Assembly: GCA_964552775.1 (NCBI GenBank)
Contig: CAZKIH010000014.1
Location: 26,991-90,990, forward strand
Reading direction: 5' to 3'
Source: an uncultured Ignavibacteria bacterium
GTDB taxonomy: Bacteria; Zixibacteria; MSB-5A5; CAIYYT01
Length of the DNA: 64,000 bases
Shown: positions 1,041-64,000 of the stretch, piece after piece
Numbering within the stretch: position 1 is the first letter of the stretch
Layout of the letters: the number at the start of each line of letters is the position of its first letter
Program-made: the position numbers and the translations under genes
Notes under the pieces: generated by a model
Told to the model about the DNA's origin: nothing
What the model saw: only the letters and a program-made list of their open reading frames with translations
The model's database searches: none

Positions 1041-2038
1041 GAATCTTGGTGCTGGCCGGGGGCGAGTCAAAGGAGCGTGAGGTCTCGCTTAATACCGGCA
1101 AGGCAATCGCCGTCGCGCTCAAGACGATTGGCCACGATGTCGCAATGATCGACACTCGTGACGGCCGCGATCTGCTCGGCACCGCTGTCGCTCCTGTGCT
1201 GGAGCAATCATCATCTTCCGGCCCTGCCTCAAAACAGCCTCGATTCGAACTGGCGCTGCCGTCATCTCTTCGAGATTGCGATTGCGTTTTCATCGCGCTC
1301 CACGGCGGATTGGGCGAGAACGGAACGCTTCAGGCCATGTTCGATCTCGCCGGCGTTCCTTACACCGGGTCCGGCGTGCTGGCCTCGGCATTGGCGATGG
1401 ACAAGCAGCGCACCAAACTGGTTCTCGGATCGGTTGGTGTTCCATCTCCGCGCACTGTCTGCTTCGGTGATGAGGTGTCGCTCTTTCGTTTCCTCGGCAG
1501 CGAGGATGCCGATTTCCTCGAATACCCAATGGTCGTCAAGCCCAACTGCGAAGGTTCCACCGTCGGCCTGAGCATCGTGCACAATTACGACGAATTGCTT
1601 CACGGCATCCGCACGGCCGCGCAATTTGACCGCGCCATCCTGGTCGAGGAATTTATTCCGGGCCGCGAATTGACAGTTGCCATCCTCGGCGAAGAGGCTC
1701 TCCCGGTCGTTGAAATCGTTCCCAAGTCCGGATTCTACGACTATCACGCGAAGTACACTTCTGGTGCCTCCGACTACTTCTGCCCCGCAGATATCACTCC
1801 CAAAGTCGAGGCCGAGGCCAAGGACTTTGCGCTGACGGCTTTCAATATTCTGGGCTGCTCTGGTTATGCGCGGGTCGATTTTCGTCTCAATCCCGATGGT
1901 GAATTGTTCTGTCTTGAAGTCAACACCCTTCCCGGCATGACTTCAACCTCACTGGTTCCAAAAGCCGCCAAAGCCGCCGGTTTGTCCTTCGAGCAATTGT
2001 TGACCAAGATCATCGAGCTCTCGCTGAAGAAATCGTAG
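1037..2038 (+). CDS. ddl: D-alanine--D-alanine ligase
   Basis: MRILVLAGGESKEREVSLNTGKAIAVAL..., ALHGGLGENGTLQAMFDLAGVPYTGSGVLASALAMDKQRTK, ATP-grasp C-terminal region; start overlaps the upstream stop. Confidence 0.85.
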   Translation: MRILVLAGGESKEREVSLNTGKAIAVALKTIGHDVAMIDTRDGRDLLGTAVAPVLEQSSSSGPASKQPRFELALPSSLRDCDCVFIALHGGLGENGTLQAMFDLAGVPYTGSGVLASALAMDKQRTKLVLGSVGVPSPRTVCFGDEVSLFRFLGSEDADFLEYPMVVKPNCEGSTVGLSIVHNYDELLHGIRTAAQFDRAILVEEFIPGRELTVAILGEEALPVVEIVPKSGFYDYHAKYTSGASDYFCPADITPKVEAEAKDFALTAFNILGCSGYARVDFRLNPDGELFCLEVNTLPGMTSTSLVPKAAKAAGLSFEQLLTKIIELSLKKS

Positions 2039-2210
2039 CCGGTTTCGGTGCTCGGCGGATGTCCACATCCGCCGAAAACGTCCATCGGCTCCAGAAACAA
2101 ATCTCGTCGATTGGTGGTGGACCAAGGCGATCGAGCAGCCAATCGGAAGCGCATGAATTAAGCCATGCGGTCGATGTGGACATCATCGCGCACGGAAATT
2201 GCCTCTTCTT

Positions 2211-2366
2211 TGTAGGTCGAAACCCCTAATTCCACCGTCGTGACCCTTAACGTGTCGTCTGGGGGGTTTCGACACCTATGATGTTCGGATCACCAAGACG
2301 CATGTCGAAACCCCTCAAGGTATCTCTTAGCTCTGAAGACTTTCCAATAAGGGATTTCGACCTACA
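2211..2366. repeat. Nested inverted-repeat element in the convergent gap between ddl and the helicase: two copies of a GTCGAAACCCC...(about 37 nt)...GGGGTTTCGAC hairpin unit, bracketed by a perfect 12-bp inverted repeat TGTAGGTCGAAA / TTTCGACCTACA
   Basis: Read directly: 2216-2226 pairs with 2264-2274 (11 bp), 2304-2314 with 2351-2361 (1 mismatch); outer 2211-2222 pairs with 2355-2366. Confidence 0.55.
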
Positions 2367-2379
2367 GCATTTCCCAACG

Positions 2380-52300: not shown

Positions 52301-55300
52301 TAGTGGCTCGCAACAGTGATCTTCTTGCCAAGGAAATTGATGCGTTCAAAATAGTGTCCATTGTCGACCAACACTGTGTCACCGCTTACCGCAGCGTCAA
52401 TAGCTGACTGAATCGTAGGATACTCATGCGGCACCTCTCTGCGTGGGTCAGGAGTAGCGAACGGTAATGCACCCATGTCATTTCGCGTGCCGTCAGGGTC
52501 GTTGTAGATTGGCTCTGGATCGCCGGCATTGACGCATGGGGAATTAGCTGATAAATTGAAATTCAGTTCAACCGGCGCCTGGAAAAGAGGATCTGCCGAA
52601 ATATTGCCAAGCCCAGGAGTTGCCCCACCATCGTAATCAATTCCATTGTTCCAAACATCGTTATATGCGAGGACTGCGAAGTTGCCAGAGACTCCGTACT
52701 CAGATGAACCCACTACAATATTATTCTTTGCAACTGCCAGACCAGACAAGCAATAGAACCCGCGGCTATTACTCTGAAACGTGTTATTGGTTATGTCTGC
52801 CCGCGTGCTATCTATATAGACGCCGATACAGGCGTTTCCAACTGTGTTCGAAATGAAGAGGTTCTTCTCGATACAAGGATGGGAATTGTGGCAGAAAATC
52901 AGCGTTTGATCTCCGACAAGCCCTGTAAATTTGTTACCTCTGATTCTCACACGACTTCCATCAGTTGCGGTCAAGAGATGAATAGCATTAGAATTCTGAA
53001 ATGTGAACCCACTTACCTCTGAAGTAGAATCAACGCTCCCATCGCAAATCAGGATCGGTGTCATCGGCACAGCACCTTGGAGAATCGTTGAATCTGGACC
53101 TGATTCAGACGCCAGAACAATACTCTTCTGGACTAGATCGAGGTTTTCCAAGTAAATGCCTTTGGAAACCAGCACCGTATCCCCATCCACCGCCACATCA
53201 ATTCCTCGTTGTATGGACGCGAACGGATTCGTCTCACTACCGTCTCCAAATGAATCATCACCGTTAGGATCAATGTGCCAAGTCGGACCGGCATAAACGA
53301 GTCTAATTAGCTTGGACACAAATGCGTCCTTACTACCCAAGCTGCCATCAAAAGGTCTCGCCGTCGGGAAATTTGATGATTCAGTGCATCCAGTCACGTA
53401 CGCGTTCCCCGCCAAGTCCACCGCGATGGCATAGCCTTCCTCACTATCAGTGCCGCCCAGATAAGTGCTGTAAATCAATCTAGTGCCACCAGGACTAAGT
53501 TTCGTCACAAAGGCGTCACTACTGCCATTGTAACTGCCGTCAAAGGGACTGGCCGTGGGGAAATCAAATGACCGCGTCCCTCCCATCACATACGCGCTCC
53601 CCGCCAAGTCCACCGCGATGGCATAGCCAACGTCATCATTAGTGCCACCCAGGTACGTGCTGTAGACCAGGCTATTGCCATCCGAGCTAAGTTTTGTCAC
53701 GAAGACGTCACCACCACTATTGTAGCTGCCGTCAAGAGGGTTAGCAGTCGGGAAATTAGTAGACCGAGTATCTCCCGTCACGTACGCGCTCCCGGCCAAA
53801 TCCACTGCGATGTCACGGCCAAAGTCTTCATTAGTGCCGCCCAGATAAGTGCTGTAGACCAAGCTGTTACCGGCGGGACCAAGTTTCGTCACGAAGGCGT
53901 CATTGTTGCCATTGGAGCTACCGTCAAAAGGGCTGGCCGTCGGAAAATCGGATGACGATGTCCTTCCGGACACGTACGAGCTCCCCGCAAAGTCCACCGC
54001 GATGTCATAGCCTTGGTCATAACCAGTGCCTCCCAGATAAGTGCTGTAGACCAAGCTATTGCCAGCCGGGCTAAGTTTCGTCACGAAGGCGTCGCCACCA
54101 CCATTGTAGCCGCCGTCAAACGGATTTGCAGTGGGGAAATTAGATGACGACGTCCCTCCCATCACGTACGCGCTCCCTGCCAAGTCCACCGCGATGGCAT
54201 AGCCAACGTCATCATTAGTGCCACCCAGGTACGTGCTGTAGACCAGGCTATTGCCATCCGAGCTAAGTTTTGTCACGAAGACGTCACCACCACTTTTGTA
54301 GCTGCCGTCAAAAGGATAGGCCATCGGGAAATCGGACGAATAAGTTAGTCCGGTCACGTACGCCCTCCCCGCCAAGTCAACCGTGATGCTACTGCCAAAC
54401 TCGCCATTAGGACCGCCGAGATACGTGCTGTAGACAAGGCTATTGCCATCCGAGCTAAGTTTCGTCACGAAGACGTCATTATTGCCACCATTGAAACCAC
54501 CGTTGAGAGGACTGGCCGTCGGAAAATCGGAAGAATTAGTGCTTCCCGTCACGTACGCGCTCCCCGTCGAATCAACCGCGATCGAATAGCCTATGTCCTC
54601 ATTTATGCCGCCAAGATAAGTGCTGTAGGTTAGACCGACTGCGAGCGTACCCATCGCCTGCCGACTTGAGCCATTGAAATTCGATGTAGTTGTATATTCC
54701 GGTGACCGTGAGAAGGTAGCGGTACCGGAAAGGATGCCAAATGCCGGTGTCTGGAAGGGTACGATTAGGTCTCCCAGCTTGGTCCTCAAAATCATTCTTC
54801 CGTCGGCAAATAAAGAAGTGCCTTCGGCCCCATCATATTCAACTTTAATCTGTGCTATATCTGCACCCGGCGCGACAACGAACTCGTAAGCTGCCTGACC
54901 ATTACCGTCGCCGGCGTATTTCAGGTCGATACCGGGATAAATGTCTTTGAGCGTGATCGCTTCGTAGTTCGGCACGTCGGTATGCCACTTCGCCGGTTCA
55001 TTTCCGAGGAAGTAGTTGCACTTGTATTCCATCAATCCACCGCTTATCACTTGGGGATTCGCATTTGATCCAACGAACGAAGCCCTAATCACCAAAGTCT
55101 CAACGCTATCCGCCTCACGGCCAAATCTGTCCAATGATCGAAAATCGTCGACTCCCTGCAGTCGCACAGCCATTCGCTCTTCCGAATCAGCCTTCGCCAC
55201 AGTTCTACAGAACTGGTAATAGATGCCATCATTGGCTATCCAAATTGTTGCGCCACCAGCATCCGTTCGATAGAGAACCTTCTCATCCCACTGACCCACA

Positions 55301-55380
55301 TTCTTCGTGAATGCCACCGGCATTGCACTCACTTGCAGCGACAGCGCCAGGATGAACAGCGAAGCTATGGCGGTTTTCAT
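49315..55380 (-). CDS. Giant (2021 aa) secreted protein: about 8 SBBP beta-propeller repeats, two parallel beta-helix regions, cadherin-like and FN3-like modules, C-terminal dockerin pair
   Basis: Signal peptide MKTAIASLFILALSLQVSA; repeats ...VYSTYLGGTNDDVGYAIAVDLAGSAYVMGGT.SSNFPTANPFDGGYNGGGDAFVTKL... x8; beta-helix repeats; C-terminus GDADGNGVVTISDVVFLINYIFAGGAAP...GDANCSGGINISDAVYLIQYIFGGGAAPCEG, about 90% identical to the C-terminus of gene 23546.. Confidence 0.85.
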   Translation of the reverse strand: MKTAIASLFILALSLQVSAMPVAFTKNVGQWDEKVLYRTDAGGATIWIANDGIYYQFCRTVAKADSEERMAVRLQGVDDFRSLDRFGREADSVETLVIRASFVGSNANPQVISGGLMEYKCNYFLGNEPAKWHTDVPNYEAITLKDIYPGIDLKYAGDGNGQAAYEFVVAPGADIAQIKVEYDGAEGTSLFADGRMILRTKLGDLIVPFQTPAFGILSGTATFSRSPEYTTTSNFNGSSRQAMGTLAVGLTYSTYLGGINEDIGYSIAVDSTGSAYVTGSTNSSDFPTASPLNGGFNGGNNDVFVTKLSSDGNSLVYSTYLGGPNGEFGSSITVDLAGRAYVTGLTYSSDFPMAYPFDGSYKSGGDVFVTKLSSDGNSLVYSTYLGGTNDDVGYAIAVDLAGSAYVMGGTSSSNFPTANPFDGGYNGGGDAFVTKLSPAGNSLVYSTYLGGTGYDQGYDIAVDFAGSSYVSGRTSSSDFPTASPFDGSSNGNNDAFVTKLGPAGNSLVYSTYLGGTNEDFGRDIAVDLAGSAYVTGDTRSTNFPTANPLDGSYNSGGDVFVTKLSSDGNSLVYSTYLGGTNDDVGYAIAVDLAGSAYVMGGTRSFDFPTASPFDGSYNGSSDAFVTKLSPGGTRLIYSTYLGGTDSEEGYAIAVDLAGNAYVTGCTESSNFPTARPFDGSLGSKDAFVSKLIRLVYAGPTWHIDPNGDDSFGDGSETNPFASIQRGIDVAVDGDTVLVSKGIYLENLDLVQKSIVLASESGPDSTILQGAVPMTPILICDGSVDSTSEVSGFTFQNSNAIHLLTATDGSRVRIRGNKFTGLVGDQTLIFCHNSHPCIEKNLFISNTVGNACIGVYIDSTRADITNNTFQSNSRGFYCLSGLAVAKNNIVVGSSEYGVSGNFAVLAYNDVWNNGIDYDGGATPGLGNISADPLFQAPVELNFNLSANSPCVNAGDPEPIYNDPDGTRNDMGALPFATPDPRREVPHEYPTIQSAIDAAVSGDTVLVDNGHYFERINFLGKKITVASHYLIDADTMHIYQTIIDGDTLSNPIQNGDSSVVRFVSGEDSTCVLTGFTIRNGHGGIICQSSSPSFPHNRIVENREYGIRLRSSESVVSSCIVSNNSGHGIAFGSVLRSVEDCIISQNQGDGIHRYGVSEVSAVSRCRISHNAGTGILSMQIASVRDCLIDSNLRAIGYTAIPDRAEVGAAPHQRGWGTFTNVTVLDNGAGIQSADAHWTFDSCLFEGNALYGLQLAGDVWPTITNSTFRKNGTSTSEGGAINFRSGNPLYISISGTVFDGNIAAKGGAVYEQGGSTPNEGIFRRCTFINNRADSGAAVYVIKTSNRHIQFDSCIFAFNQNGPAIHARGSYENVSISCTNIFGNEGGDWTDSLAPQLGINGNISADPLFCDTASGDYHLRNSSPCAPENNECEALMGKYGVACENAAPEITSEDKVTAYEDIPFSYIADFSDVDGPTGLISYLHYPGWLSVDSTDLHGAPPNGSSDSSFLVIASDSFLADSLLVSISYVARNDAPVFPEMDSILVSEGDTLRLHLVATDIDGDDLHFAASDLPLNSSFVDSGNGSAVFEFSPDYTQAGFFQPAFTVEDDSLAADTLEVSVLVVNTNLAPTSPSVFAPIDSTEVLADDWLLWTESLDLDINDSLWYNVQIASNNLFEVLLCNVTIREDSLGPNPLVAKDAITGLQIGSIVCYGDLSDDSYYHWRVRGIDKYGGTSAFSPGSHVFFLNKANTPPHAVSATIYPKAGEPVNDLTPALSWYSASDPDPSDDAAHLRYFVLVDDNPDFAGPYVKSYWTAFGQPSVEVDSLTDETHHFYRIQTADDEGAVSVWSVTYDFWTNWRNDFPTSFSLALPPNNKLSVGVTPQFSWRRAIDNDPLDSVSYTLVLALDPGFLFKVEFAGIADTIFSLASPLSYSEDYWWTVKAVDLYEGITWSSQTFRFKTLVPGDADGNGVVTISDVVFLINYIFAGGAAPNPLDAGDANCSGGINISDAVYLIQYIFGGGAAPCEG
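53560..54290. repeat. Tandem SBBP-repeat coding units of about 165 bp within the giant gene, including an about 130-bp near-perfect direct duplicate (about 53581-53715 versus 54150-54285)
   Basis: Identical stretch ...CCAAGTCCACCGCGATGGCATAGCCAACGTCATCATTAGTGCCACCCAGGTACGTGCTGTAGACCAGGCTATTGCCATCCGAGCTAAGTTTTGTCACGAAGACGTCACCACC... read twice. Confidence 0.6.
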
Positions 55381-55760
55381 AAGGTCCCTCTCCCTTTACG
55401 ATCCTATCAATCAACGATTAGACTTGCCCATGACAGACTCGGTTGGTAGTCACTGGTTTTGCGAATAATCTGAATTCTCCCTAAATGTATAGAAATATCG
55501 ACCTTCGTCAAGGACAATCGGCTTTTGAACATGCAGCATACAGACCCGACAATGGGAGTCAGAGTTTGAGTGAGACTGTCCGCCAAGCCTCGTGTATTTT
55601 CTCATATGCGGCCTCAATCGCTTCTCGACCCAGGCTTCCTGGCAGGATCCAATTGTCGAGAAGCAACGAGCCGATGCACTCATCCCGCCACTAAGAAGAT
55701 TTCCCAGACTCAAAACTCGCCCTTTCTCGGCTGTATCTTCTTGATACGCAAGAGAATACC

Positions 55761-55789
55761 TTGACATTGTCGATGTGATTCCCTATATT
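55761..55789 (+). promoter_or_regulatory. Near-consensus sigma-70-type promoter (TTGACA - 17 nt - TATATT) with no obvious downstream ORF
   Basis: TTGACA 55761-55766, 17-nt spacer, TATATT 55784-55789. Confidence 0.4.
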
Positions 55790-56269
55790 GACTTGATTCG
55801 TCCATCGTTTGAGTTGAAAGCCGTGCCGCCTTCTGCGGACAGATAATGTCGATGACAACAACCTCAACAAGGCATGTACTGACCTGACCAAACCTTGGGC
55901 GCAACCGGTCCGGGTTCTCACTCGAACTTTGGACACTTAACCTGTCACTCATTACGAGCGCGTCGGCCGGCAGTGGGACAGCGATAGCCTTGGCTGTCAG
56001 TCCCAGATACCTTTGGCTGCTGCAGCGATCGATTCCGTGGTACGCAGAGTCGCGGACCAGACCCGACGACAACGGGCTGCGCCTCCCCGACACGCACCAA
56101 CGAAAAGAGCTTCGAGTGAGTTGCGCCGTTTGGCTCATCGAGCACTACGTTTGTCTTACTTGCAGAGGTAGGCAACCCGACTCATAGCGCCGTAAGTAAT
56201 TATCGTTCAGCATGTTGCATCGCCACACCTCATTCTTAAACCTGAACATGCATGGATTTTACGAGCACA

Positions 56270-56440
56270 TCAAGTGAATCCACTTCTGCCGACCCAGAAC
56301 ATTTGTTCCTCGATACACTGGCGGTAAATTTCCTGACTCAACTCAGGTTCCGAAGGTTCACAAAGTTGGTGAATCCACGCGATGACTATCAACTCAATGT
56401 ACATGGCAACTTTGATTCTATTTTCAGAATTTTCGATCAT
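56270..56440 (-). CDS. Candidate 56-aa protein with strong RBS (not in ORF track)
   Basis: AGGAGGAAGU then AUG; MIENSENRIKVAMYIELIVIAWIHQLCEPSEPELSQEIYRQCIEEQMFWVGRSGFT*. Confidence 0.3.
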   Translation of the reverse strand: MIENSENRIKVAMYIELIVIAWIHQLCEPSEPELSQEIYRQCIEEQMFWVGRSGFT

Positions 56441-56539
56441 ACTTCCTCCTATTTGATATTCCCAACCAGTGGGGTGTAATCGTAACGAGGAATGGAATTT
56501 TTCAAAAAAAGTTGTGAAATAGAGAAAATCGGTGGCACG

Positions 56540-57064
56540 TAGTGGCGCGTTATGTCACCTTATGTCACCCAAAAAAATGAGCTCGATCTGAAGCTATATG
56601 GTAGACAACTAATAAGTACTATACTAATTAGTTACTATACTAATTAGTAGTTCTCTTATTAACGCTTATGAAAAACTTATTTACGCTTAAAGAGGGCTTA
56701 CTAGTAAGCGTTAATTAAACCCCCTCTTTAAGCGTATTCTCCCCCTTTCTAGCTATGCTAAATCCCAGGAAAGAAGATTCCGGTAACCTGAGCTTATCCA
56801 CCCTCTTTACGGTTACCGGCGACCGCATGCTTGCGCATGCAGTCGGACAAGGGGTACTTACGTACCCAGAGTTGTAGTTGAGCTTAGTCCCTGTTCACCT
56901 GGAATCTTACACACGTCTTACCGGTAGCTGGTACTCGATAGCGTAGGATATCTGCACGTTGTTGATTCTCTAGAAAGCGCCAATGGTTGCTTAGGCCTGC
57001 CGCCCCCCCAAAAAAAATCACTTTTTGTTGTTCGATGTGACGATTTTTTGGGGGTGGTGTAGAT
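56540..57064. repeat. AT-rich iteron/palindrome cluster, putative replication origin or att-proximal region of an integrated element
   Basis: TATGTCACC x2 (56551-56569); (T)TACTATACTAATTAG x2 tandem (56617-56646); 14-bp inverted repeat ACGCTTAAAGAGGG (56683-96) / CCCTCTTTAAGCGT (56722-35) around the palindrome CTTACTAGTAAG; TTAACGCTTA / TAAGCGTTAA inverted repeat; hairpin CCCCCCCAAAAAAAATCAC...GTGACGATTTTTTGGGGG at 57014-57064. Confidence 0.45.
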
Positions 57065-57102
57065 TTATACTTGTGGGGCAGACCATCTGATAGAGGAGAA
57101 TT

Positions 57103-57990
57103 ATGATAGTATTTGACATTGAGACAGTACCAGCATCGGCCGGTGAACTTGTTGATGCAGAGAGGTATATGGCGAAGCTGCCTGACGCCCGAGCTGCTTT
57201 CGAAAAATTTATGGAGTCCCCAAGTGTTGCGGGAGCCGAAAAAATCGAAAAGTATAACGAAGAAGTTTGTAAAGCGGCCTCTCCGGACACCATAGCCCTC
57301 TGGCAGATACTCCAGAGCCTGTTTCTAAACGGCTCGCCAATCAACGAAATTACCGTCCGCAATCAGTTACCGCGTGGACTGTCGATCGATTGGGCTTTCG
57401 AGCACTCGGACGTCTACAAAGTTGATGTCTACATCTCGATCTTGAAAGACAACTATCTGCGGCGTTCTCTCTCGGCGGCTACCGATCGGGTGACCAAACA
57501 GGTGGGTGATATGAGTGTATCGGCTTCCGCTGTCCGCGACGACCTGCAGCAGACGATCCTGGATCTTGCGCTGGATGACGCGGGACATCGGGACACGTCC
57601 GTCAAAGCCGCCTTGAAGGTCGCAATGGCTCAGGCGCGTGATAATGCGGCTATCATGCGCGAGCGAGGTATGATAGGCATCGACCTCTGCAGCTCGAAAG
57701 TCAACTGGCTGACCGCGGGTGCCAGACGCAAGGAGTTGACGATTCTGGGAGGTCTCACGGGCATGGGCAAGAGCCTCTACATGAACGCCCTGGTCGATCG
57801 CAACAGCCGGGTACTCCGTCGCCGCGGTCTGGTCATCAGCCTCGAGATGTCGGCCTCGTCCATCTGTTACCGCCTGATCGGTACGGCCTTTGGGGTGAGC
57901 GCTAAACGTTTCGCCACGGGGTTTATGAGAAGACAGGAGCTGGATGATATTGGTCGTTTCTTCATTTCTTTGCCCCCATGGCAAAGAGGA
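57103..57990 (+). pseudogene. Truncated phage/plasmid-type DnaB-like replicative helicase (N-terminal two-thirds only)
   Basis: ...GIDLCSSKVNWLTAGARRKELTILGGLTGMGKSLYMNALVD...GLVISLEMSASSICYRLIG (Walker A plus DnaB motifs), then low-complexity Arg-rich tail and a GC-content drop after about 57990; the ORF to 58269 is not credible. Confidence 0.5.
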
Positions 57991-58484
57991 CAATTCATAT
58001 CAATATTTTCACCCTTAAAGTTAGGAGCATGCATGTCAGTACATTCGGCAATCAGTAGGAGACAGAGAAGGCATTGTGCCAGGGCTCGCAGGAGCTCAGA
58101 GATCACTTCAACAACCTGGCTAGATGTGAGGGGGAATTGCAGCAGAACCAGGCAGCAAAGGAGTCGCCAATTTCTCGCTGGGAGGTATCAGCAGCGTCAC
58201 TTCCACGAAATCATGAAAGCGGATCGCTCAAGATCAAAACCTCGAATTTACACCAAGAGGACACCATGAAGAAACTCAATCTAACTTCAAAGTCTAGAAG
58301 GATGTCACAAGTAGCCATGAAACTGAACTTCGGAAACGACCACTAAATGGAGATCTGTGTGGAAGCCTATGAGTAGTATCAAAAAAACACAGTGTGTGAG
58401 CGAAATGGAATTCAGGACCCTGAATCCCGAGTCACCAAAAGTATCAACCTGTTCAGATGCCGACTGGACATTGCGAGAGAATTA

Positions 58485-58712
58485 ATGGACTGGAAAGAAA
58501 CAGTCGAATCAATAGCCGTCGAGTTAGGCAAGAGTACATCGTGGGTCTACAAGGCCACGAGCACCGGTATCCTGCCTTGTATTCACATCGGAGGAGGTCT
58601 TCGATTCAACAAGGAAGAAGTGTGGGCTCATCTTGCGGACCAGCGACCAAAGAAGCGCGGTCGACCGTGTAAGGGAGCACGCGATGTCACGAATCAAGAA
58701 AAGAGGCAATAA
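58485..58712 (+). CDS. xis: Excisionase/HTH_17-family DNA-binding protein
   Basis: MDWKETVESIAVELGKSTSWVYKATSTGILPCIHIGGGLRFNKEEVWAHL matches the excisionase/AlpA winged-helix pattern; overlaps the integrase start. Confidence 0.55.
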   Translation: MDWKETVESIAVELGKSTSWVYKATSTGILPCIHIGGGLRFNKEEVWAHLADQRPKKRGRPCKGARDVTNQEKRQ

Positions 58713-59712
58713 TTGGCAGCTCGACTACTATCTCAATGGACGGCGTTACCGCCGAAGCCTTGGCGAAATGACGAAGGCCAAGGCAGAAGAGATAGCACGC
58801 GACTATGAACAGCAAATAATCACCGGTCGACTTGGGTTTGAGACCAAGAAGTCGCCGTTACTGAGAGATTTCTGTCAGGATTACTTTGAGTATAGTAAAG
58901 CTAACCACGCGCCCAAGACAAGCAGAGATATTGCATTCACATTTGGCAAGAACTTGATTCCATACTTTGGCGATCAGAGGCTTTCCGAGATCGATTTTGA
59001 GCTAGTAGAGAAGTTCAAACTATCTCGCCGGGGACGAGTCTCAGACTCGACAGTGAACAAAGACCTTCGTTATCTGCGGGCGATGCTCAATTATGCGAAG
59101 TCTGTTGGAAAGATTGATGCCAACAAGATGGCCGGTGTAAAGCTCTTAAGGACGACGACGTGTACGGGCAGAATTCTTGATGAGTCAGAAATTGAGAAGA
59201 TCGGGAGCTCCTCGAATTTCTTGCGCCCACTCTTCCTAACTGCTATTCATACTGGCCTTCGCGCAAACGAACTATTCAACCTGAGCTGGGATGATGTGGA
59301 TTTTGGTGAAAAAACAATCACTGTCAGGGCCAAGGGTGACTGGCACCCCAAAAACTACAAAAATCGTGTTGTCCCGATGACCGAAAGACTGTATGATATC
59401 CTGCTCCAAACTCATAAGAGAGGGCATGTATGTGTCTTCACGTACGAGAATGGAAGAAAGATCAAAGACGTTCGGTCGGCGATAAGAAAACTCTGCGACG
59501 AATTAGACATCGAGATTTTCACCATGCATGATCTTCGCCGAACATTTGCGACATTCATGGGACACGTTGGTGGCGATATCCTCTCTGTGAAAGAAGCAAT
59601 GGGCCACTCAGATGTCCGCACAACGATGGGTTACATGCGCACAGGTCTCGATAGAATTCGCAAAACAGTAAACAAATTGCCGTTTGCTGAAAAACAAAAA
59701 ATCGTAGACTGA
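58684..59712 (+). CDS. int: Tyrosine-type site-specific recombinase/phage integrase
   Basis: N-terminal SAM-like domain plus catalytic domain with TGLRANEL (Arg), HDLRRTFAT (H-x-x-R), HSDVRTTMGYM (catalytic Tyr). Confidence 0.85.
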   Translation: MSRIKKRGNNWQLDYYLNGRRYRRSLGEMTKAKAEEIARDYEQQIITGRLGFETKKSPLLRDFCQDYFEYSKANHAPKTSRDIAFTFGKNLIPYFGDQRLSEIDFELVEKFKLSRRGRVSDSTVNKDLRYLRAMLNYAKSVGKIDANKMAGVKLLRTTTCTGRILDESEIEKIGSSSNFLRPLFLTAIHTGLRANELFNLSWDDVDFGEKTITVRAKGDWHPKNYKNRVVPMTERLYDILLQTHKRGHVCVFTYENGRKIKDVRSAIRKLCDELDIEIFTMHDLRRTFATFMGHVGGDILSVKEAMGHSDVRTTMGYMRTGLDRIRKTVNKLPFAEKQKIVD

Positions 59713-59840
59713 TTTAGGTAATGATTGTGACCATTTGTGACCATGACTTGAAAAAAAGAGCGGAAATTCGACAAAATCAGGCATTTGCCGGAGAATTTCT
59801 GCGAAAAGCTGGAATTGTTAAATTGTTATAGTCGAGTAAC

Positions 59841-61553
59841 TTACTCATAAGTCGTTAGAAAGCCGGTGTAGCTCAGTTGGTAGAGCAGCTGATTTGTAAT
59901 CAGCTGGTCGGGGGTTCGAGTCCCTTCACCGGCTTTTAACATTGTGGATGTTTGGTCTGTTAAGACGTTGACTGGCTGAATGTTACCGTAGATGGTAATC
60001 TCTCGATCCTCTGATGTTCCGGAAATCTTTACAGTCAATCGACCAGGAAACATCCTGTCAAAATGCCTCTTGATCTCGGATACAGTAGTTGTCGTCTGCA
60101 ATTTTTGAGCTACTGTTACCAGCAACTCTCTGACGCGCTCTGGTCTAAACTGTCGCGCAGAGATGTCCTCGCTCGCCTGAGAGTTCAATTTTTGCGTGAC
60201 TGCGGTCAGTTCACGTTCCTTCTGCCTTAGTCTCTCCGACACCGACTCCGATGCTTTCCCGGCTTCGATGTAATCGACGAGCGATTCAATTGCGTTCTTA
60301 AGTTCTCGCGATTTCTTAGAAAGCACCGTGCGATTCTCAACTAAGCTGGTCTTCTTGGAGGCCATATGTTGAGTGACCATCCCGGTCAGTCTGTCGACAA
60401 CGCTCCTTGAAACAAGTAGGCGCTGCAACCCCGCAGTCACATTCGAATCGACCTCATCACATGGAATTCTTTGATTGCAGCGACAGAATGCAGTACCGCG
60501 ATTTCTATAGCCATTGCAAACGTAGCCTGCCCAGTTCTTGCCCGATTTTCCGCCGACGTATGATGATCCGCATTCCGAGCATTTCAGTAGTCCAGAAAGC
60601 AGGTAGACTCCACGAGGTCCGGAGCGGAGCCGTTTCGGTCCATGATCATCGTTCAATGTTGTTTGAACCGCATCCCAAATCTCTTGCGGAATGATTCGAA
60701 GCGTATCGTCGATACGTTCGATCCAGTCCTCGGACGACTTGGGGCGACTCGAGCGCTTTGAAAATGACGTTTTCTTAATTGAGCGCGATTTGTTCCAAGT
60801 CCAGTCACCGATGTACTTGCGCTGACGTAACATACTTCTAATGGTCGAACTCGTCCAAGAGCCTGTCCGGGTTCCTTTGCCTGCGAATGGAGCTGGAATG
60901 CCTGATTCATTTAGGATTTTCGCTATTGACCTGAAGCCGTGGCCGTCCCGGCGCAAGTTGAATACACGTTTGACGATTTTAGCCTCGTCTGGACGTATTA
61001 CGGTTTTGACTCCATGGCGGCGCGGACGACCGAATTTGTCGTTTCCTGCTCCTTCGATTAGCTCAGATTGGGAGGAGTAGCCGAAGAGTTTACCCCCTGC
61101 TGAGTATCCTCGAATTACCTGGCCCTTCAAACCGCGAGTGATCTTGGCTTTGAGTTCGTCGAGAAAGAACTCGTTGGTTAAGCTCTTGAAGTAATAGGGC
61201 AATTTGCCTGAATCCAGTGAAGTGTCGATTCCGTCAGCGACTGCCACAATGGATACCTCAAGCACTCTGAGTTCCCGAAATACCTGAAGCGATTCAACAG
61301 CGTCGCGTCCAAGTCGGGACAAATCATCGACGACGATTGCATCAAAATGATTGGCGAGTGCTGCCCGCTTGAGGTCTTGATATGCGTCGCGATTAGTCTC
61401 GAGTCCGCTGATTGCTTCATCGGCATAAACGTGACTCTCGCTGAAGCTCCAACCTTTTCGATGAATGAAGTCAGTACATTCTCGAACTTGATCGGCTATT
61501 GAAGTCTTCTTCTGGGCGTCGCTGGAATATCTGGCGTAGATTGCACAATTCAT
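59841..61553 (-). CDS. Large serine recombinase (resolvase/invertase N-terminal domain plus recombinase domain plus zinc ribbon); the ORF's last about 30 codons are antisense to tRNA-Thr
   Basis: MNCAIYARYSSDAQ...SIADQ (catalytic Ser region), DDLSRLGRD, recombinase domain, CSECGSSY...CNGYRNRGTAFC zinc ribbon, coiled-coil tail; no stop until 59841, beyond the tRNA. Confidence 0.85.
   Translation of the reverse strand: MNCAIYARYSSDAQKKTSIADQVRECTDFIHRKGWSFSESHVYADEAISGLETNRDAYQDLKRAALANHFDAIVVDDLSRLGRDAVESLQVFRELRVLEVSIVAVADGIDTSLDSGKLPYYFKSLTNEFFLDELKAKITRGLKGQVIRGYSAGGKLFGYSSQSELIEGAGNDKFGRPRRHGVKTVIRPDEAKIVKRVFNLRRDGHGFRSIAKILNESGIPAPFAGKGTRTGSWTSSTIRSMLRQRKYIGDWTWNKSRSIKKTSFSKRSSRPKSSEDWIERIDDTLRIIPQEIWDAVQTTLNDDHGPKRLRSGPRGVYLLSGLLKCSECGSSYVGGKSGKNWAGYVCNGYRNRGTAFCRCNQRIPCDEVDSNVTAGLQRLLVSRSVVDRLTGMVTQHMASKKTSLVENRTVLSKKSRELKNAIESLVDYIEAGKASESVSERLRQKERELTAVTQKLNSQASEDISARQFRPERVRELLVTVAQKLQTTTTVSEIKRHFDRMFPGRLTVKISGTSEDREITIYGNIQPVNVLTDQTSTMLKAGEGTRTPDQLITNQLLYQLSYTGFLTTYE
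59862..59934 (+). tRNA. tRNA-Thr (anticodon TGT), no encoded CCA
   Basis: GCCGGTG-TA-GCTCAGTTGGTAGAGC-A-GCTGA-TTTGTAA-TCAGC-TGGTC-GGGGGTTCGAGTCCCTT-CACCGGC-T: cloverleaf with 7-bp acceptor stem, T-loop GGTTCGAGTCC. Confidence 0.85.
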
Positions 61554-63043
61554 GAAACGGCCTCTCCTGATTGCAATGGAACACTTTGTCCACACTTCTC
61601 GCAATAACTTTCTACGAGATTTGTCTTGATTGAGTAAAATCTCGAAATGCGGAGGTCGTGCTTTACCGTGACTTTCATGCCGCTGGCTCCGAATCGTTGC
61701 ACCGGAATTCCAATGTCGAACAGGTGGGTCTTCTCGCCTGGCGTTCGGTCGTGATTATGCAGGATGATCGCGCAGTCGCAAGCTTCTGCAATTCCGCCAG
61801 ATTCTTTGAAGTCGCCAACCGTGGGCTGGTCTTCGAATTCCGCTCTGTTGGCGAGTTGTGAGAGTGCAATCAAAGCCACATTGTATTTTCGCGCTGCGTC
61901 TGCCAGTTGGTTCACAGCCTTTTGGATCGCTGTCGCCCTGGAGTCGCCCTTGTTAGGAATATCTATGCGTTGCAGATAGTCAAGGAGCACAACCTTCACG
62001 CCTTTGCGTGACTGTCGTCGTATATGGCTTGTGATTTGCTCGATTGTCATTCCGGGGCTATCGACTACTTGCAGCGGCCAGTCGTCAACGATGTTCGCAG
62101 CGGTGTCGAGTTGAGACAGTTGAAGAGCGCTTATGTACTGAGTGCCGAGCAACCGTGAATCAACGTTAGCTTGTCGCGAAAGGAGAATGCGGTTGACTTG
62201 ATCGGCTGACATTTCAAGTGAAACAATCAAGCAGGGAATGCGTCTTTCCGCAATCAAGTTCCCGACAAGCTCGGATATGACACTAAGTCCGAATCGTGAT
62301 TTTCCAGTCTTCTTTAAGCCTCCGACCGCATAGTACCGGCCCGGCACGATTCCGCCTGTAAGTTCATCCAAACGCTTATCGATTCCCCACGAATATCCGA
62401 TTCCGCCAGACTTCTTTGCTTCGTGAATAGACTGGAGGGTTTCATATATGGTGACAGTCTTGACAGGATCCAAAAACCGATCCTTCAGAATTTCATCCTC
62501 GAGCTTCGCACGGAAAAGCTGATAGTTGTCCGGTTTGCATATCAGCTCGGACTTGAATCGTTGTAGATTATTGAAGAGTAATTGCTTATCGAAATTCTCT
62601 CTGACTCTTGCAATGTAGTGGGCCGCGTTCTCGGAACTGACGGGATGCTGGCGCAGAAGTCCCAGAGAGATCTCTGGGGAGCTGCCTTCTTCGATTGACC
62701 TTTTGCACTTCGAAGCAAGTTCCTGAAGTCGGTCAATCAGGCTTACGTCGTCAACTTCGATTTGCTCGGCCATGAGTCCGTAAACAGCATCTGCGATTCG
62801 ACGCGCCAACGGCGAGGCAAACATCTCTTGCGGCACTGTCTCGGAGATTTGATCGCGTGAGTCGCGATCCGTGGCAAGCAGAACGGCCAGATACTCTTCT
62901 GCGGCGACGTCTGGTTCGATAACCTGTGATTCGAGATTAGTATTCTGCAAGCGGTAGTCCTTTCCTTTCCTTGTGACCGTTTTGGCTGAAATAGCGCATG
63001 AATTGAGTTCTGAAAACGCCGAGCCCGCGATCGGTGCCGGCAA
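61550..63043 (-). CDS. Phage/plasmid-type DnaB-like replicative helicase (intact)
   Basis: DnaB N-terminal domain (EEYLAVLLATDRDSRDQ...), Walker A VGGLKKTGKS, LIVSLEMSADQ, Walker B VVLLDYLQ, ALSQLAN; stop overlaps the recombinase start (coupled); true start may be internal to 63043. Confidence 0.8.
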   Translation of the reverse strand: MPAPIAGSAFSELNSCAISAKTVTRKGKDYRLQNTNLESQVIEPDVAAEEYLAVLLATDRDSRDQISETVPQEMFASPLARRIADAVYGLMAEQIEVDDVSLIDRLQELASKCKRSIEEGSSPEISLGLLRQHPVSSENAAHYIARVRENFDKQLLFNNLQRFKSELICKPDNYQLFRAKLEDEILKDRFLDPVKTVTIYETLQSIHEAKKSGGIGYSWGIDKRLDELTGGIVPGRYYAVGGLKKTGKSRFGLSVISELVGNLIAERRIPCLIVSLEMSADQVNRILLSRQANVDSRLLGTQYISALQLSQLDTAANIVDDWPLQVVDSPGMTIEQITSHIRRQSRKGVKVVLLDYLQRIDIPNKGDSRATAIQKAVNQLADAARKYNVALIALSQLANRAEFEDQPTVGDFKESGGIAEACDCAIILHNHDRTPGEKTHLFDIGIPVQRFGASGMKVTVKHDLRISRFYSIKTNLVESYCEKCGQSVPLQSGEAVS

Positions 63044-63692
63044 CGAATTTGTCAGTGTCGTAAAGGAATTTTATCGCACACTGTCGCAAAATTTCCAATT
63101 CGATTCCCTCTCTCAGTATCTCTTTGATCTTCGCTTGATCCTTCCCATGTGTAGGGATATACTTCACCCCCATGGCCTTTTCGTATTCAGAGCAGAACCA
63201 GGTCAGAAATTCAAGCACGCGCGGATCACCAATTTCCTTATTTCCCTTATTACCTTTATTATATTCCTGCCCTTTGCGTGCCCTTGTCGTGCCCTCCACG
63301 GTTCTTTCTTGTGCCCCTGAGTTCGATAAAGGATTGTATTCGTTATAGTTGACTATGGTAATCATCGTGCCCTTTTTTCCGGCTTCCATTGTGATGTATC
63401 CGCGAGTTCTCAAATTCCCAAGAAATCCGCGGACCTTTTTGATCGACCAGCGCCAACGTTGGGCGAGATATGAGTATGAGAATACCTGGCTTCCGCGTTC
63501 TACGGTGATCAGTTTTCCATCAATGAGTCGCCCCTGATCAGTGCCACGGACACTAAGAAGTAGGTCGAGTTTGGCTTCTTGTTTAGTGAACGGCCGGCGC
63601 TCCTGAATCGGCGAAGTCTCATCCTCAAAGAATGACCGATAGAGCCGAATGTAGCCGGTCGAGAGCTTGTCAGGATTCGCGCTACATGCCAT
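62937..63692 (-). CDS. Replication-initiator / replisome-organizer-like protein (hypothetical)
   Basis: GYIRLYRSFFEDE...LAQRWRWSIKKVRGFLGNLRTRGYITMEAG resembles winged-helix phage replication proteins (inference); Lys-rich linker; located upstream of dnaB. Confidence 0.45.
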   Translation of the reverse strand: MACSANPDKLSTGYIRLYRSFFEDETSPIQERRPFTKQEAKLDLLLSVRGTDQGRLIDGKLITVERGSQVFSYSYLAQRWRWSIKKVRGFLGNLRTRGYITMEAGKKGTMITIVNYNEYNPLSNSGAQERTVEGTTRARKGQEYNKGNKGNKEIGDPRVLEFLTWFCSEYEKAMGVKYIPTHGKDQAKIKEILREGIELEILRQCAIKFLYDTDKFVAGTDRGLGVFRTQFMRYFSQNGHKERKGLPLAEY

Positions 63693-63993
63693 TTGAATCC
63701 AGCCTTTTGATTCTGTAATTCAGTGCCGCAGCCTTGTCGTCGAGATAAGCTTCGTGATCCTCGGCGTCAGCGATAATAGTGTAGTATTGGCACTTAGTGA
63801 TAAGTCCGCATCTAAGTCGCACTTTCGCAAATTTGACTCTGAAGGCATGTTCCTCGGCGAGGCGGATCACAATCTCGCGACACTTGCGGAGCTCCGCTCT
63901 CTTGCGGTGAATCTCAAGCTGTTTCTGAGTGGTCACTTCAGTAATGGCGAAAGTGGGCCGGGTAGTCTTTGTGAATCCGAGTGGAAGCGTCAC
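63682..63993 (-). CDS. Hypothetical element-borne protein (may extend past window end)
   Basis: 103-aa ORF on the same strand as the replication genes. Confidence 0.3.
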   Translation of the reverse strand: MTLPLGFTKTTRPTFAITEVTTQKQLEIHRKRAELRKCREIVIRLAEEHAFRVKFAKVRLRCGLITKCQYYTIIADAEDHEAYLDDKAAALNYRIKRLDSNGM

Positions 63994-64000
63994 GCCTTTG

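Follow-up and report, generated by a model that had tools for sequence, protein, structure and literature searches.

A predicted serine-recombinase element at a tRNA-Thr gene, with a recombinase reading frame that runs antisense through the tRNA

Gene content of the locus

The window analysed here is a stretch of 64,000 nucleotides from an uncultured bacterium of the GTDB lineage Zixibacteria, towards the end of which two gene modules flank a tRNA gene (Table 1). The only tRNA that ARAGORN called in the window is a tRNA-Thr(TGT) on the forward strand, 59861-59935; direct reading of the sequence gave its parts and found no CCA encoded at its 3' end. The open reading frame of a large serine recombinase (LSR) lies on the reverse strand and crosses the whole of this tRNA to a 3' end at 59841. 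Its TAA stop occupies 59843-59841, so that the last sense codon ends 18 nt past the tRNA 5' end (21 nt with the stop). A preliminary description of the locus had reported the antisense overlap, the position of the stop and the C-terminal tail (...KAGEGTRTPDQLITNQLLYQLSYTGFLTTYE), and all three agree with the ORF and its translation.

The LSR ORF as mechanically delimited (59841-61604) begins with a TTG at 61604; the most likely true start is the ATG at 61553 (MNCAIYARYSS), which overlaps the stop of the helicase gene as ATGA and has a GGAGAGG motif upstream. The protein carries the Pfam domains Resolvase (PF00239, 1.6e-23), Recombinase (PF07508, 8.9e-26) and Zn_ribbon_recom (PF13408, 1.8e-11), matches the PHROG 95 integrases at 1.8e-89 and retains the invariant catalytic Ser and four zinc-ribbon Cys (alignment A1). 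Its best NCBIfam match is CcrB-like, far under the cutoff, and it bears little sequence identity to solved LSRs (SPbeta-type integrase, E 1e-7). The intact helicase is predicted to be translationally coupled to the LSR through the ATGA overlap. The DnaD-like ORF had no match in Pfam or NCBIfam, and the hypothetical ORF none in Pfam, PHROG or NCBIfam. This right-hand element continues past 64000 with its far end outside the window; a longer copy of the contig was sought and not found, and only one end of the element is in view, with neither its attR nor its attP.

Table 1. Features at the tRNA-Thr locus (window coordinates)
Feature	Position	Strand	Remarks
GC-poor repeat region	56480..57100	.	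GC 0.42 vs ~0.50
Repeats within it	56550-56569; 56608-56648		TTATGTCACC x2; 16-nt unit x2.6
Perfect 15-nt inverted repeat within it	56682-56696/56722-56736
DnaB-like pseudogene	57103..58269	+	DnaB models match only to ~residue 285; remainder out-of-family
HTH_17 / excisionase-like ORF	58392..58712	+	Pfam HTH_17 1.9e-5, under cutoff; TIGR01764 1.9e-4
Tyrosine integrase	58684..59712	+	342 aa from ATG; Pfam Phage_integrase 2.7e-24; PHROG 1 3.3e-65
Tandem TTGTGACCAT x2	59725..59744	+	TRF; directly after integrase stop
LSR	59841..61553	-	570 aa from ATG 61553; 3' end covers whole tRNA
LSR ORF stretch in putative non-element DNA	59841..59926	-	antisense tRNA + 18 nt 5' flank + stop; crossover inferred
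tRNA-Thr(TGT)	59862-59934	+	Rfam RF00005, 73 bits; intact
Anticodon	59895-59897	+
T-loop	59915-59921	+
T-stem 3' strand	59922-59926	+
Acceptor 3' strand	59927-59933	+
Discriminator	59934	+
Predicted crossover zone	59923..59935	.	homology with junction pairs of L019, L030 and attP-like sites of L005, L065/L070
Outer P-arm motif	59936..59950	-	TCC-N3-AATGT, here TCCACAATGT; 13-23 nt from putative centre
DnaB-family replicative helicase, intact	61550..63043	-	N- and C-terminal domains; Pfam DnaB_C 7.8e-38, DnaB 9.3e-6; PHROG 19 8.9e-56; TIGR00665 2e-43, under cutoff
DnaD-like helicase loader / replication initiator candidate	62937..63692	-	PHROG 2514 8.9e-18; PHROG 186 1.2e-12
Hypothetical ORF, same operon	63682..63993	-

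On the left, the excisionase-like ORF lies upstream of the tyrosine integrase gene and overlaps it, a gene pair also present in three relatives (L151, L158, L159), where analogous tandem repeats follow the integrase gene; the window's own tandem repeats are candidate arm-type integrase sites, and the GC-poor region is possibly an origin or a set of arm sites. L151, which comes from another sample, has an integrase 93% identical to the window's; it too stands upstream of that tRNA, in a matching position, and shares the downstream junction. The two DnaB-like proteins of the window share only 27% identity over 93 residues (E 2e-4), in keeping with the earlier view that the flanking modules are different elements and not a duplication. 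The left module, made up of the tyrosine integrase, the excisionase-like gene and the DnaB pseudogene, is an element in its own right, decayed and unrelated to the one on the right.

The gene layout given in the preliminary description was borne out on the right (LSR, intact DnaB-like helicase, initiator-like gene, hypothetical gene) by ORFs and domain matches, and on the left (AT-rich repeats, truncated DnaB-like gene, excisionase, tyrosine integrase) by ORF, domain and repeat analysis. Its term "hotspot" is not established for the tyrosine-integrase module, for which no tRNA fragment or att repeat was found within the window; the placement of the L151 integrase bears on this question too, as does the tandem occupancy seen in relatives L005, L039 and L104.

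Association of the recombinase group with tRNA genes

The relatives counted comprise 117 non-duplicate loci from at least six phyla in which the recombinase 3' region is present. A full opposite-strand tRNA lies beneath the recombinase 3' end in 54 of these and 12 nt or more of a tRNA's 3' terminus in a further 45, giving adjacency in 99 of the 117, with neither present in 18; ARAGORN, applied to the first 48 loci (L001-L048), placed an opposite-strand tRNA there in 23. The tRNAs concerned are Met, Pro, Glu, Lys, Ala, Thr and Leu, and this spread over at least seven species fits targeting better than carriage of the tRNA as cargo. The group is widespread and little described, its gene ending inside the target tRNA in nearly every relative. 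Four Xanthomonadales genomes are syntenic past the tRNA (75-88%) and mosaic on the opposite side, a pattern which marks the tRNA side as host DNA in the relatives. L001 (LSR 49% identical, no tyrosine integrase nearby) has the same tRNA; its match to the window runs to the end of the tRNA and is lost beyond it, and there the two LSR tails part too.

Approximately 85 of the best 120 protein homologues end in an antisense-tRNA peptide, read in either of two frames (VAGAGFEP..., or GCGGRI followed by a stop). Homologues therefore do align over the tail, a result once expected to dispense with the idea of a fused C-terminus, but they do so because they too sit on tRNAs; as the tail is shared in two reading frames, it is the DNA and not the peptide that is conserved. 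The proposal of an integration-generated fusion accordingly stands in that the ORF end is generated by integration, but not as a one-off event, nearly all relatives being alike. Since random stretches of 31 codons are stop-free with an estimated frequency of ~0.2, full read-through alone is not improbable; it is the systematic overlap across relatives, not the length of the tail, that exceeds chance. Most relatives stop after "SGAGT" at an antisense TGA in the T-loop; the window's T-loop reads TTCGAGT and has no such codon, which is the only reason for its long tail.

The attachment site and the proposed mechanism

The attachment site had been placed inside the tRNA gene, and the junction structure and attP-like forms of the relatives agree. 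The far end of L019 shows, after a host MFS gene, TGGTCGGGGTG and, across the junction, AAGCGATTTGCTC-TGTTCCTGC, while the recombinase end reads GCAGGAACA-AG-TGGTCGGGGTG up to the tRNA. The attP reconstructed from these ends contains a 9-nt inverted repeat, free of mismatches, which occupies positions 14-22 either side of the centre, and the tRNA arm carries 7 of the 9 positions of this motif 5 bp nearer the centre, which is the offset between attP and attB motifs described for LSRs (Rutherford et al. 2013, PMC3783163). L030 has the same geometry. In L005 an attP-like form, TCCAATAGC-N13 joined to N13-GCTATTGGA, occurs at the same junction, and over 30 nt its P arm does not differ from those of L071 and L086, which are integrated copies; L065, L070 and L156 likewise carry P joined to P', with a conserved P' motif. 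Among Zixibacteria-group relatives the outer P-arm motif TCC-N3-AATGT is kept at a fixed distance, protein- and DNA-level conservation being inseparable there, and the tRNA arm in this subgroup has no clear shifted copy of it. The Logan contig of L050, a close relative, breaks ~30 nt (about k-1 nt) past the inferred centre.

Carried over from relatives 30-50% identical, the dyad centre of the window's putative attL would fall at ~59926/59927, the boundary between the acceptor and T-stem 3' strands; sequence identity bounds the exchange point to ~12 nt only, and the centre rests on dyad symmetry. DNA to the right would belong to the element (P arm), and that to the left, the B' arm, to the tRNA that was there before. 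The element's share of tRNA-Thr would then be its last 8 nt at most, and the last ~27-30 LSR residues, (E)GTRTPDQLITNQLLYQLSYTGFLTTYE before the stop, would be host-encoded. With a crossover so close to the tRNA 3' end, the expected far-end repeat is only ~8-12 nt. The direct repeat of the tRNA 3' end that had been anticipated at the far boundary does exist in relatives, though only as 12-13 nt (12 nt in L022), and no tRNA repeat longer than 13 exact nt occurred in ~24 loci whose element is covered over 10 kb. If the crossover is indeed at the acceptor/T-stem junction, CACCGGCT(T) should stand at the element's far boundary, and no long tRNA 3' copy is to be expected.

From the observed domain architecture, operon, overlap, group-wide tRNA association and junction structure of the relatives, it is considered likely that one end of a small, presumably self-replicating element, inserted in tRNA-Thr by its LSR, stretches from ~59927 past 64000, the left module being a second element. 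The element, with its single operon of hypothetical protein, DnaD-like loader, DnaB helicase and LSR, would have entered the tRNA gene at its 3' end by means of its own LSR. The attP of the group would overlie the last codons of the recombinase gene, its P arm mimicking the target tRNA's acceptor 3' strand together with the discriminator and, where encoded, CCA, and attB would comprise the T-arm and acceptor 3' strand. Strand exchange at, or a few nt from, the acceptor/T-stem junction would regenerate the tRNA intact, only ~8 nt being swapped for an identical element copy. The integrated recombinase gene, convergent with the tRNA and devoid of its own stop codon, would then be read until host DNA first supplies an in-frame stop: in TTCAA T-loops an antisense TGA 3-6 codons on, which is lacking in the TTCGAGT loop, so that the ORF goes on through the entire tRNA and 18 nt of its flank. 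The odd read-through would thus be a by-product of where the element recombines, and the tail probably has no function. The element may well still be mobile. As the 5' flank of tRNA-Thr is another mobile element, the window's own tRNA is of probable rather than certain host origin.

Alternative interpretations

A classical tDNA island, in which crossover falls within the anticodon loop or the T-loop, the element brings along 20-45 nt copied from the tRNA 3' half and most of the tail is element-encoded and unchanged by integration, would accommodate the recombinase-adjacent fragments of L013, L024, L033, L062, L091, L116 and L124, which match tRNA up to the anticodon loop, the attP-like sites of L005, L057 and L065, which match as far as the T-loop, the end of the L050 contig in the anticodon loop, and the Dehalococcoides precedent mapped to the T-loop (PMC3146451). 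It is nevertheless unlikely given the want of longer repeats and the dyad centre at the acceptor/T-stem junction; moreover, the far-end copies of L019, L022 and L030 part from tRNA sequence as soon as the acceptor strand ends, with a T-stem strand that is unable to pair with the resident tRNA. The 3' half-tRNAs ending at the anticodon loop next to several relatives are attributed to later insertions, an attribution supported for L039 and L104, where further elements or a full tRNA some distance away accompany them.

That the tRNA is instead cargo of the tyrosine-integrase module or of the LSR element, or that 56.5-64 kb is one composite with two recombinases, appears rather improbable. It would explain why integrase, spacer and the 5' part of the tRNA are conserved as a block in L151 (86% nt) with differing cargo, why no core host gene separates the window's two modules, and why the integrase of the validated relative L161 adjoins tRNA-derived sequence in the same orientation. 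In relatives, however, the tRNA marks the border with syntenic host DNA, and the LSR group occupies many tRNA species; this reading also sits poorly with the dissimilarity of the DnaB genes, one of them a pseudogene, and with L001, where tRNA and LSR type are the same and the tyrosine integrase is absent nearby. Hardly credible is an ORF-calling artefact in which the recombinase ends upstream of a coincidentally adjacent tRNA: antisense tRNA ORFs are frequent artefacts and the read-through length is at chance level, but no in-frame stop precedes the tRNA in the window or its relatives, homology reaches within 2-3 codons of the junction, and adjacency recurs throughout the group.

Comparison with known systems

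Known phage LSRs mostly target protein-coding genes or intergenic DNA, with attP outside the integrase ORF. The window group shares with those of LI/A118, Bxb1 and phiC31 (PMC3783163) the three-domain protein and dyad-symmetric sites, and differs from them in an attP that covers the last integrase codons and an attB that is a tRNA gene.

The closest precedent is found in the ssrA-specific islands of Dehalococcoides, whose ~540-aa, CcrB-like serine recombinase DsiB is encoded on the opposite strand directly beside the tRNA-like gene's 3' end; these islands form tandem arrays, show the tDNA 3' end again at the far boundary as a direct repeat of 20 bp, and insert in the T-loop region (McMurdie et al. 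2011, PMC3146451). The likeness is one of layout, the window LSR also adjoining a tRNA 3' end on the opposite strand and scoring best against CcrB models. Unlike those islands, the window element targets a true tRNA rather than a tmRNA, has no small DsiA/CcrA-like partner recombinase in the 4 kb of it inside the window, carries a replication module as cargo, and has its inferred centre a few nt nearer the 3' end.

Serine integrases were stated in 2014/15 not to be known to target tDNA (PMC4383910). As in tyrosine-integrase tDNA islands (the Islander signature; PMC4383910), the tRNA gene would serve as attB and be regenerated by element sequence, the integrase gene lies at the tRNA-proximal end, and hotspots with arrays occur; the LSR family is, however, unrelated and without arm sites, and its identity block is ~8-13 nt as against 20-60 nt. 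In gene content the window element resembles the tycheposons of Prochlorococcus, a host of another phylum, described in a preprint as small tRNA-gene elements joining a site-specific integrase to helicase/primase replication genes, with a large serine recombinase in 27/937 (Hackl et al. 2020, 10.1101/2020.12.28.424599).

The overlap of the putative attP with the integrase ORF at a tRNA target, such that integration changes the integrase gene, recalls the SSV type. Archaeal integrases of that type are tyrosine recombinases with attP inside the integrase gene and a tRNA target, integration splitting the gene in two, whereas in the window group the exchange would be confined to a tail that looks dispensable, from a few residues to ~30 in length.

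The tRNA-Thr gene and the recombinase that overlaps it

The only tRNA in the 64-kb window is a tRNA-Thr(TGT), placed on the forward strand at 59861-59935 by ARAGORN and at 59862-59934 by Rfam (73 bits), and no other RNA gene that might serve as a target was found in the window by Rfam. The ORF of the large serine recombinase (LSR) reads antisense through the whole of this tRNA, its first in-frame stop being the TAA at 59843-59841, and its final 31 residues (AGEGTRTPDQLITNQLLYQLSYTG followed by FLTTYE) are encoded by the antisense strand of the tRNA together with 18 nt of its 5' flank. The read-through claimed in the preliminary description is thus upheld by the tRNA calls and the uninterrupted ORF, and the genes it listed on both sides of the tRNA were all recovered by domain and family searches.

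Coordinates of the tRNA-Thr parts and of the overlapping recombinase ORF
Feature	Sequence	Position	Strand	Basis or remark
tRNA-Thr acceptor 5' strand	GCCGGTG		+	sequence read directly
tRNA-Thr anticodon		59895-59897	+	sequence read directly
tRNA-Thr T-stem 5' strand		59910-59914	+	sequence read directly
tRNA-Thr T-loop	TTCGAGT	59915-59921	+	sequence read directly
tRNA-Thr T-stem 3' strand	CCCTT	59922-59926	+	sequence read directly
tRNA-Thr acceptor 3' strand	CACCGGC	59927-59933	+	sequence read directly
tRNA-Thr discriminator	T	59934	+	CCA not encoded
LSR ORF		59841-61604	-	mechanical limits; Resolvase, Recombinase and Zn_ribbon_recom domains

Translation of the LSR almost certainly starts at ATG 61553 (MNCAIYARYSS), since all aligned homologues begin there, which would give a protein of 570 residues; a GGAGAGG motif precedes this codon, and an ATGA overlap joins it to the DnaB stop upstream. 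The catalytic domain (PF00239, E 1.6e-23), with the serine of YARYSS nearly invariant among 31 aligned sequences, is followed by PF07508 (E 8.9e-26) and a zinc ribbon (PF13408, E 1.8e-11) whose cysteines C342, C345, C363 and C374 are invariant in the alignment. In the region relevant to the coiled-coil insertion of the LSR zinc-ribbon domain, residues 410-512 gave only a weak match to a helical family (TelA, E 0.0045). Matches to known phages, mainly those of Firmicutes, reach at most about 32% identity and mostly lie at 24-28%.

Overlap with tRNA genes across the recombinase group

A protein search returned 517 relatives of the window LSR, the closer of which belong for the most part to metagenome-assembled Zixibacteria genomes. 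Among the best 30 of these 517, homology extends to a common C-terminal '...SGAGT', beyond which several aligned relatives go on 'RTPDTRIMIPLL' and one 'RTPDLLITNQLLYQLSYTGL'; these continuations are antisense translations of tRNA 3' ends. Such endings recur in about 85 of the top 120 database proteins by a hand-made motif count. Related loci (denoted below by L numbers) were fetched from reference genomes (48), IMG/VR (20) and metagenomes (80), and each was scanned for tRNAs, the group count being made on the 117 loci that retain the recombinase 3' region after removal of duplicates. In 54 of the 117, the ORF end overlies a complete tRNA gene on the opposite strand, in 45 it coincides with 12 or more exact nt of a tRNA 3' terminus, and in 18 with neither. 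Many of the 45 are proviruses trimmed by IMG/VR at the stop codon; in L054, L056, L058-L061, L066 and L067, the IMG/VR boundary falls exactly at the recombinase stop, 44 nt into a tRNA-Met, and the tRNA is lost. The target tRNAs comprise Met(CAT), Pro(CGG), Glu(CTC), Lys(CTT), Ala(CGC), Thr(TGT) and Leu(CAA), and the hosts, as labelled, span Zixibacteria, Ignavibacteria, Nitrospirota, Nitrospinota, Planctomycetota, and Alpha- and Gammaproteobacteria, the last including cultured Xanthomonas, Pseudoxanthomonas and Arenimonas.

The view in the preliminary description that the C-terminus is a fusion generated by integration, if taken as a one-off event, does not survive this survey, given antisense-tRNA endings in most of the group and a tRNA or tRNA 3' terminus at 99 of the 117 loci. 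It is the DNA and not the peptide that is conserved, because two different reading frames occur across the tRNA (VAGAGFEPTTFGL and GCGGRI*). The ORF overlaps the tRNA by 20-128 nt across loci: a T-loop TTCAA yields an antisense TGA, and the proteins end 'SGAGT*', 'SGAGI*' or 'GRGDRI*', whereas with the TTCGA of the window, L001, L002 and L028 the ORF continues. The full read-through in the window is therefore an accident of a tRNA sequence whose T-loop lacks an antisense stop. In L001, which shares the same tRNA and 49% protein identity, the tail matches that of the window through the tRNA and diverges directly beyond it. A conserved tail peptide encoded by the P' arm (P and P' denoting the element halves of attP) was also considered and rejected, as the shared 'YL..P..IP' pattern maps onto a conserved P' DNA motif, a coincidence that makes conservation of the tails at the DNA level the simpler reading.

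Two further features concern particular sets of loci. The initiator-type tRNA-Met beside the LSR reads TGCGGGG...CCCCGCTACCA (U1/U72) in L014, L030, L035, L037, L040 and L041, from Xanthomonadales, another gammaproteobacterium and a Nitrospinota genome; the alphaproteobacterial L017 has the usual C1/A72, and position 72 falls in the part supplied by the element. In addition, a 287-aa tyrosine-recombinase-like ORF lies about 400 nt upstream of the LSR in L019 (8759-9622) and about 25 other proteobacterial loci, is conserved throughout the tRNA-Pro subgroup at 62-94% identity, and is a possible partner or directionality factor of the LSR.

Extent of the element and point of exchange

Across the four Xanthomonadales genomes compared, synteny holds past the 5' end of the tRNA (75-88% for some 10 kb) and the DNA upstream of the recombinase is mosaic, which places the element on the 3' side of the tRNA with its recombinase tRNA-proximal. 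A crossover in the anticodon loop was given up as a model, since the 3' half of the tRNA was not found repeated at the far end, as a copy of 40-50 nt, within 10 kb in 24 related loci; the only matches are repeats of 12-13 nt in L019, L022 and L030, which all start exactly at the tRNA 3' terminus.

The most informative locus is L019, in which 260 nt separate the repeat from a preceding host MFS-transporter gene, and 10.6 kb of cargo and then the recombinase follow it. Its far end reads TGGTCGGGGTG/AAGCGATTTGCTC-TGTTCCTGC (the slash marking the junction) and its recombinase end GCAGGAACA-AG-TGGTCGGGGTG/ followed by the tRNA. The attP rebuilt from both element arms is symmetrical: a 9-nt motif recurs, perfectly inverted, at positions 14-22 to either side of the centre, and the centre itself falls at the boundary of the acceptor and T-stem 3' strands. 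In the tRNA arm, TGAACCTGC matches 7 of the 9 positions of this motif at positions 9-17, 5 bp nearer the centre, and such an offset of the zinc-ribbon motif between attP and attB is described for serine integrases (PMC3783163). Short dyad sites of 40-50 bp with a 5-bp offset, as expected of LSR attachment sites, are thus present in L019 and in part in L030, which has the same arrangement, and L005; no shifted outer motif was seen in the tRNA arms of Zixibacteria, and the P' arm of the element in the window lies beyond the window.

Further versions of the site come from loci without an adjoining tRNA. L005, of the Zixibacteria subgroup, abuts non-tRNA DNA and has the site TCCAATAGC-N13/N13-GCTATTGGA about the same junction; its P arm equals, over 30 nt, that of two loci bordering a full tRNA-Met, L071 and L086, so that one site is seen in an unintegrated-type form in L005 and in an integrated-type form in those two. 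The proteobacterial phage contigs L065, L070 and L156 likewise have P joined to P' with the conserved P' motif. A second P' motif with a degenerate P-like arm was observed 4.5 kb downstream of the recombinase-adjacent attP-like site in the IMG/VR contig L070 (11538, 16101) and also in L154. A candidate independent attR in L155 was set aside as a bound on the crossover, its tRNA-like arm being 2 nt off the P arm of its relatives and a matching attL not being found.

Sequence identity bounds the exchange only to the approximately 12 nt common to both partners; within these, the dyad centre points to the acceptor/T-stem junction, the predicted central dinucleotide being GA in L019 and L030 as well as in the window. 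Transferred from the relatives, the centre in the window would be 59926/59927, the element would supply at most 59927-59934 of the tRNA, and the LSR codons after ...MLKAG(E), 27-30 residues, would be DNA present before the element arrived. Weaker support may come from L050, a k-mer-assembled Logan contig with 85-90% nucleotide identity to the window, which breaks off inside the anticodon loop, some 30 nt beyond the proposed centre, an ending that would fit sequence left of the centre being common to other contexts. The far boundary is predicted to read, on the forward strand, an inverted outer motif (approximately TCCACAATG), 12-14 nt, CACCGGCT(T) and then non-element DNA, and the attP of the circular junction would be ...TTAAAAGCCGGTG joined to the far-end sequence. 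No exact match to the window LSR protein was found, a 251-aa ORF of the window had an exact match on a 1.1-kb contig only, and the closest relative is on a 4.8-kb contig ending inside the tRNA; the genome and metagenome scans returned no relatives above 49% identity.

Half-tRNAs and probable tandem insertions

In L013, L024, L033, L062, L091, L116 and L124, what adjoins the LSR is just the 3' half of a tRNA, with the match ending within the anticodon loop or next to it. A full tRNA-Pro(CGG) occurs 9.4 kb further on in L039, and a tyrosine integrase follows the tRNA fragment in L104. On the cases examined, which are only some of them, such loci may be read as later insertions into the same tRNA, i.e., tandem arrays. 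L005 (4240-11150) has a 6.8-kb insert without a recombinase between the attP-like site and a full tRNA-Met, flanked by the 20-nt direct repeat AATAGCGGTGCAGGGACTTG and containing two large minus-strand ORFs of 1357 aa (CarboxypepD_reg repeats) and 696 aa (no Pfam match); this segment looks like a recombinase-less insert in tandem with the LSR element. Separately, the initiator-type tRNA-Met fragment beside the LSR in L062 (11538-11640) ends at the anticodon loop and is joined to a sense T-arm-like GATTCGAGTCCCC, which suggests a further rearrangement at this tRNA.

Comparison with known systems

On the right-hand side of the tRNA in the window, four co-directional, overlapping genes run towards it: a hypothetical ORF, a DnaD-like loader or initiator candidate (PHROG 2514, E 9e-18), an intact DnaB-family helicase and the recombinase. 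As the loader and helicase share an operon with the recombinase, this integrative element brings a replication module of its own. The 4 kb of it inside the window show no cargo genes. Relatives of the LSR serve widely differing elements, among them proviruses of about 40 kb in Proteobacteria and the 10.6-kb island of L019.

The closest described system is that of the Dehalococcoides ssrA islands, in which a CcrB-like LSR, DsiB, lies beside the 3' end of the tmRNA gene on the opposite strand, the far end carries a 20-bp repeat, insertion was mapped to the T-loop, and tandem arrays occur (PMC3146451). CcrB is also the best-scoring model for the window LSR, far below the cutoff. The convergence of LSR and tDNA 3' end is shared by the window and the 54 related loci, and a short distal tDNA repeat (12-13 nt) is seen in some relatives, the far boundary of the element in the window lying beyond 64000. 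The DsiB islands, however, have a small second serine recombinase (DsiA/CcrA-like), whereas no second resolvase-domain ORF was found in 59841-64000; the element in the window continues further and may carry one there. As late as 2015, the Islander paper held that serine integrases were unknown to target tRNA genes (PMC4383910); among the Prochlorococcus tycheposons at tRNA genes, a minority employ an LSR (10.1101/2020.12.28.424599), and the arrangement is not described in the later resource papers examined. The window element is best read as a serine-recombinase island at a tRNA-type gene, a known kind; for the group-wide embedding of attP in the stop region of the integrase gene, no description was found in the literature examined.

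Because attP lies on its last codons, the LSR has a different tail in each state, P'-encoded when free (for example ...SGAGTCNAIGVSIPFEVIVVSKRRAA in L005 and L075) and antisense-tRNA-encoded when integrated. Once integrated, the LSR gene must also have its transcription run against that of an active tRNA gene. The change of tail or the opposed transcription might conceivably sense the integration state and tune integrase stability, expression or directionality, analogous in logic to the integration-dependent immunity of mycobacteriophages, although this is unlikely and offered as a low-probability speculation; no evidence of a function for the long tail was seen. The read-through marks not a freak fusion but a large, cross-phylum group of serine integrases with tRNA landing sites, which could be useful as broad-host-range integration tools since they need no host factors, use short sites and are aimed at the conserved T-arm/acceptor end. 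For annotation, hundreds of database entries end in antisense-tRNA peptides and provirus boundaries cut inside them, and repeat-based island finders would miss these elements because the identity block is only 8-13 nt.

The tyrosine integrase module on the 5' side

The module on the 5' side of tRNA-Thr comprises a tyrosine integrase (PF00589, E 2.7e-24), an HTH_17/excisionase-like ORF and a DnaB-like ORF whose match to DnaB models gives out at about residue 285 and which shares 27% identity over 93 residues with its right-hand counterpart. The related locus L151 encodes an integrase 93% identical to that of the window, and its HTH_17 gene, integrase, 150-nt spacer and first 28 nt of the tRNA align with the window at 86%, with an AbiEii/AbiEi pair as cargo in place of the DnaB pseudogene. 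More distant relatives keep the excisionase-integrase pair and tandem repeats just past the integrase stop. L161 is a clean tRNA island, bounded at one end by a tRNA-Met whose 3' part is repeated over 55 nt, 22 nt past the integrase stop; the window tRNA-Thr has the same position and orientation as this repeat but is full-length. The displaced tDNA fragment typical of tyrosine-integrase islands is thus present in L161 and absent from the left module: no second copy of any tRNA part of at least 12 nt was found in the 64-kb window, no weak tRNA match in 55300-59870, and no 12/13 repeat between the integrase-tRNA spacer and the left region. A 15/20 repeat at 56501 and 59748 was discarded as an att site of the module, being at chance level. 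Lacking any tRNA copy or repeat, the left module is best read as a separate, decayed element lying against the tRNA 5' side.

In the adjoining 1.7 kb (55381-57100), no ORF exceeds 142 aa and no family was matched; two inverted repeats lie in it, a perfect one of 15 nt at 56682-56696/56722-56736 and one of the form C7A8...T6G5 near 57001-57055. Very large ORFs occupy 49315-55380 (minus strand), 17865-22517 and 29052-33815; in the 2021-aa one of these, beta-propeller-like units recur and a dockerin-like repeat lies at the C-terminus. In L151, the AbiEii/AbiEi cassette (1783-4062) is bounded by direct repeats some 300 nt long, with 77-89% identity, beside the excisionase-integrase pair, and the element is flanked by a similar dockerin/FG-GAP gene.
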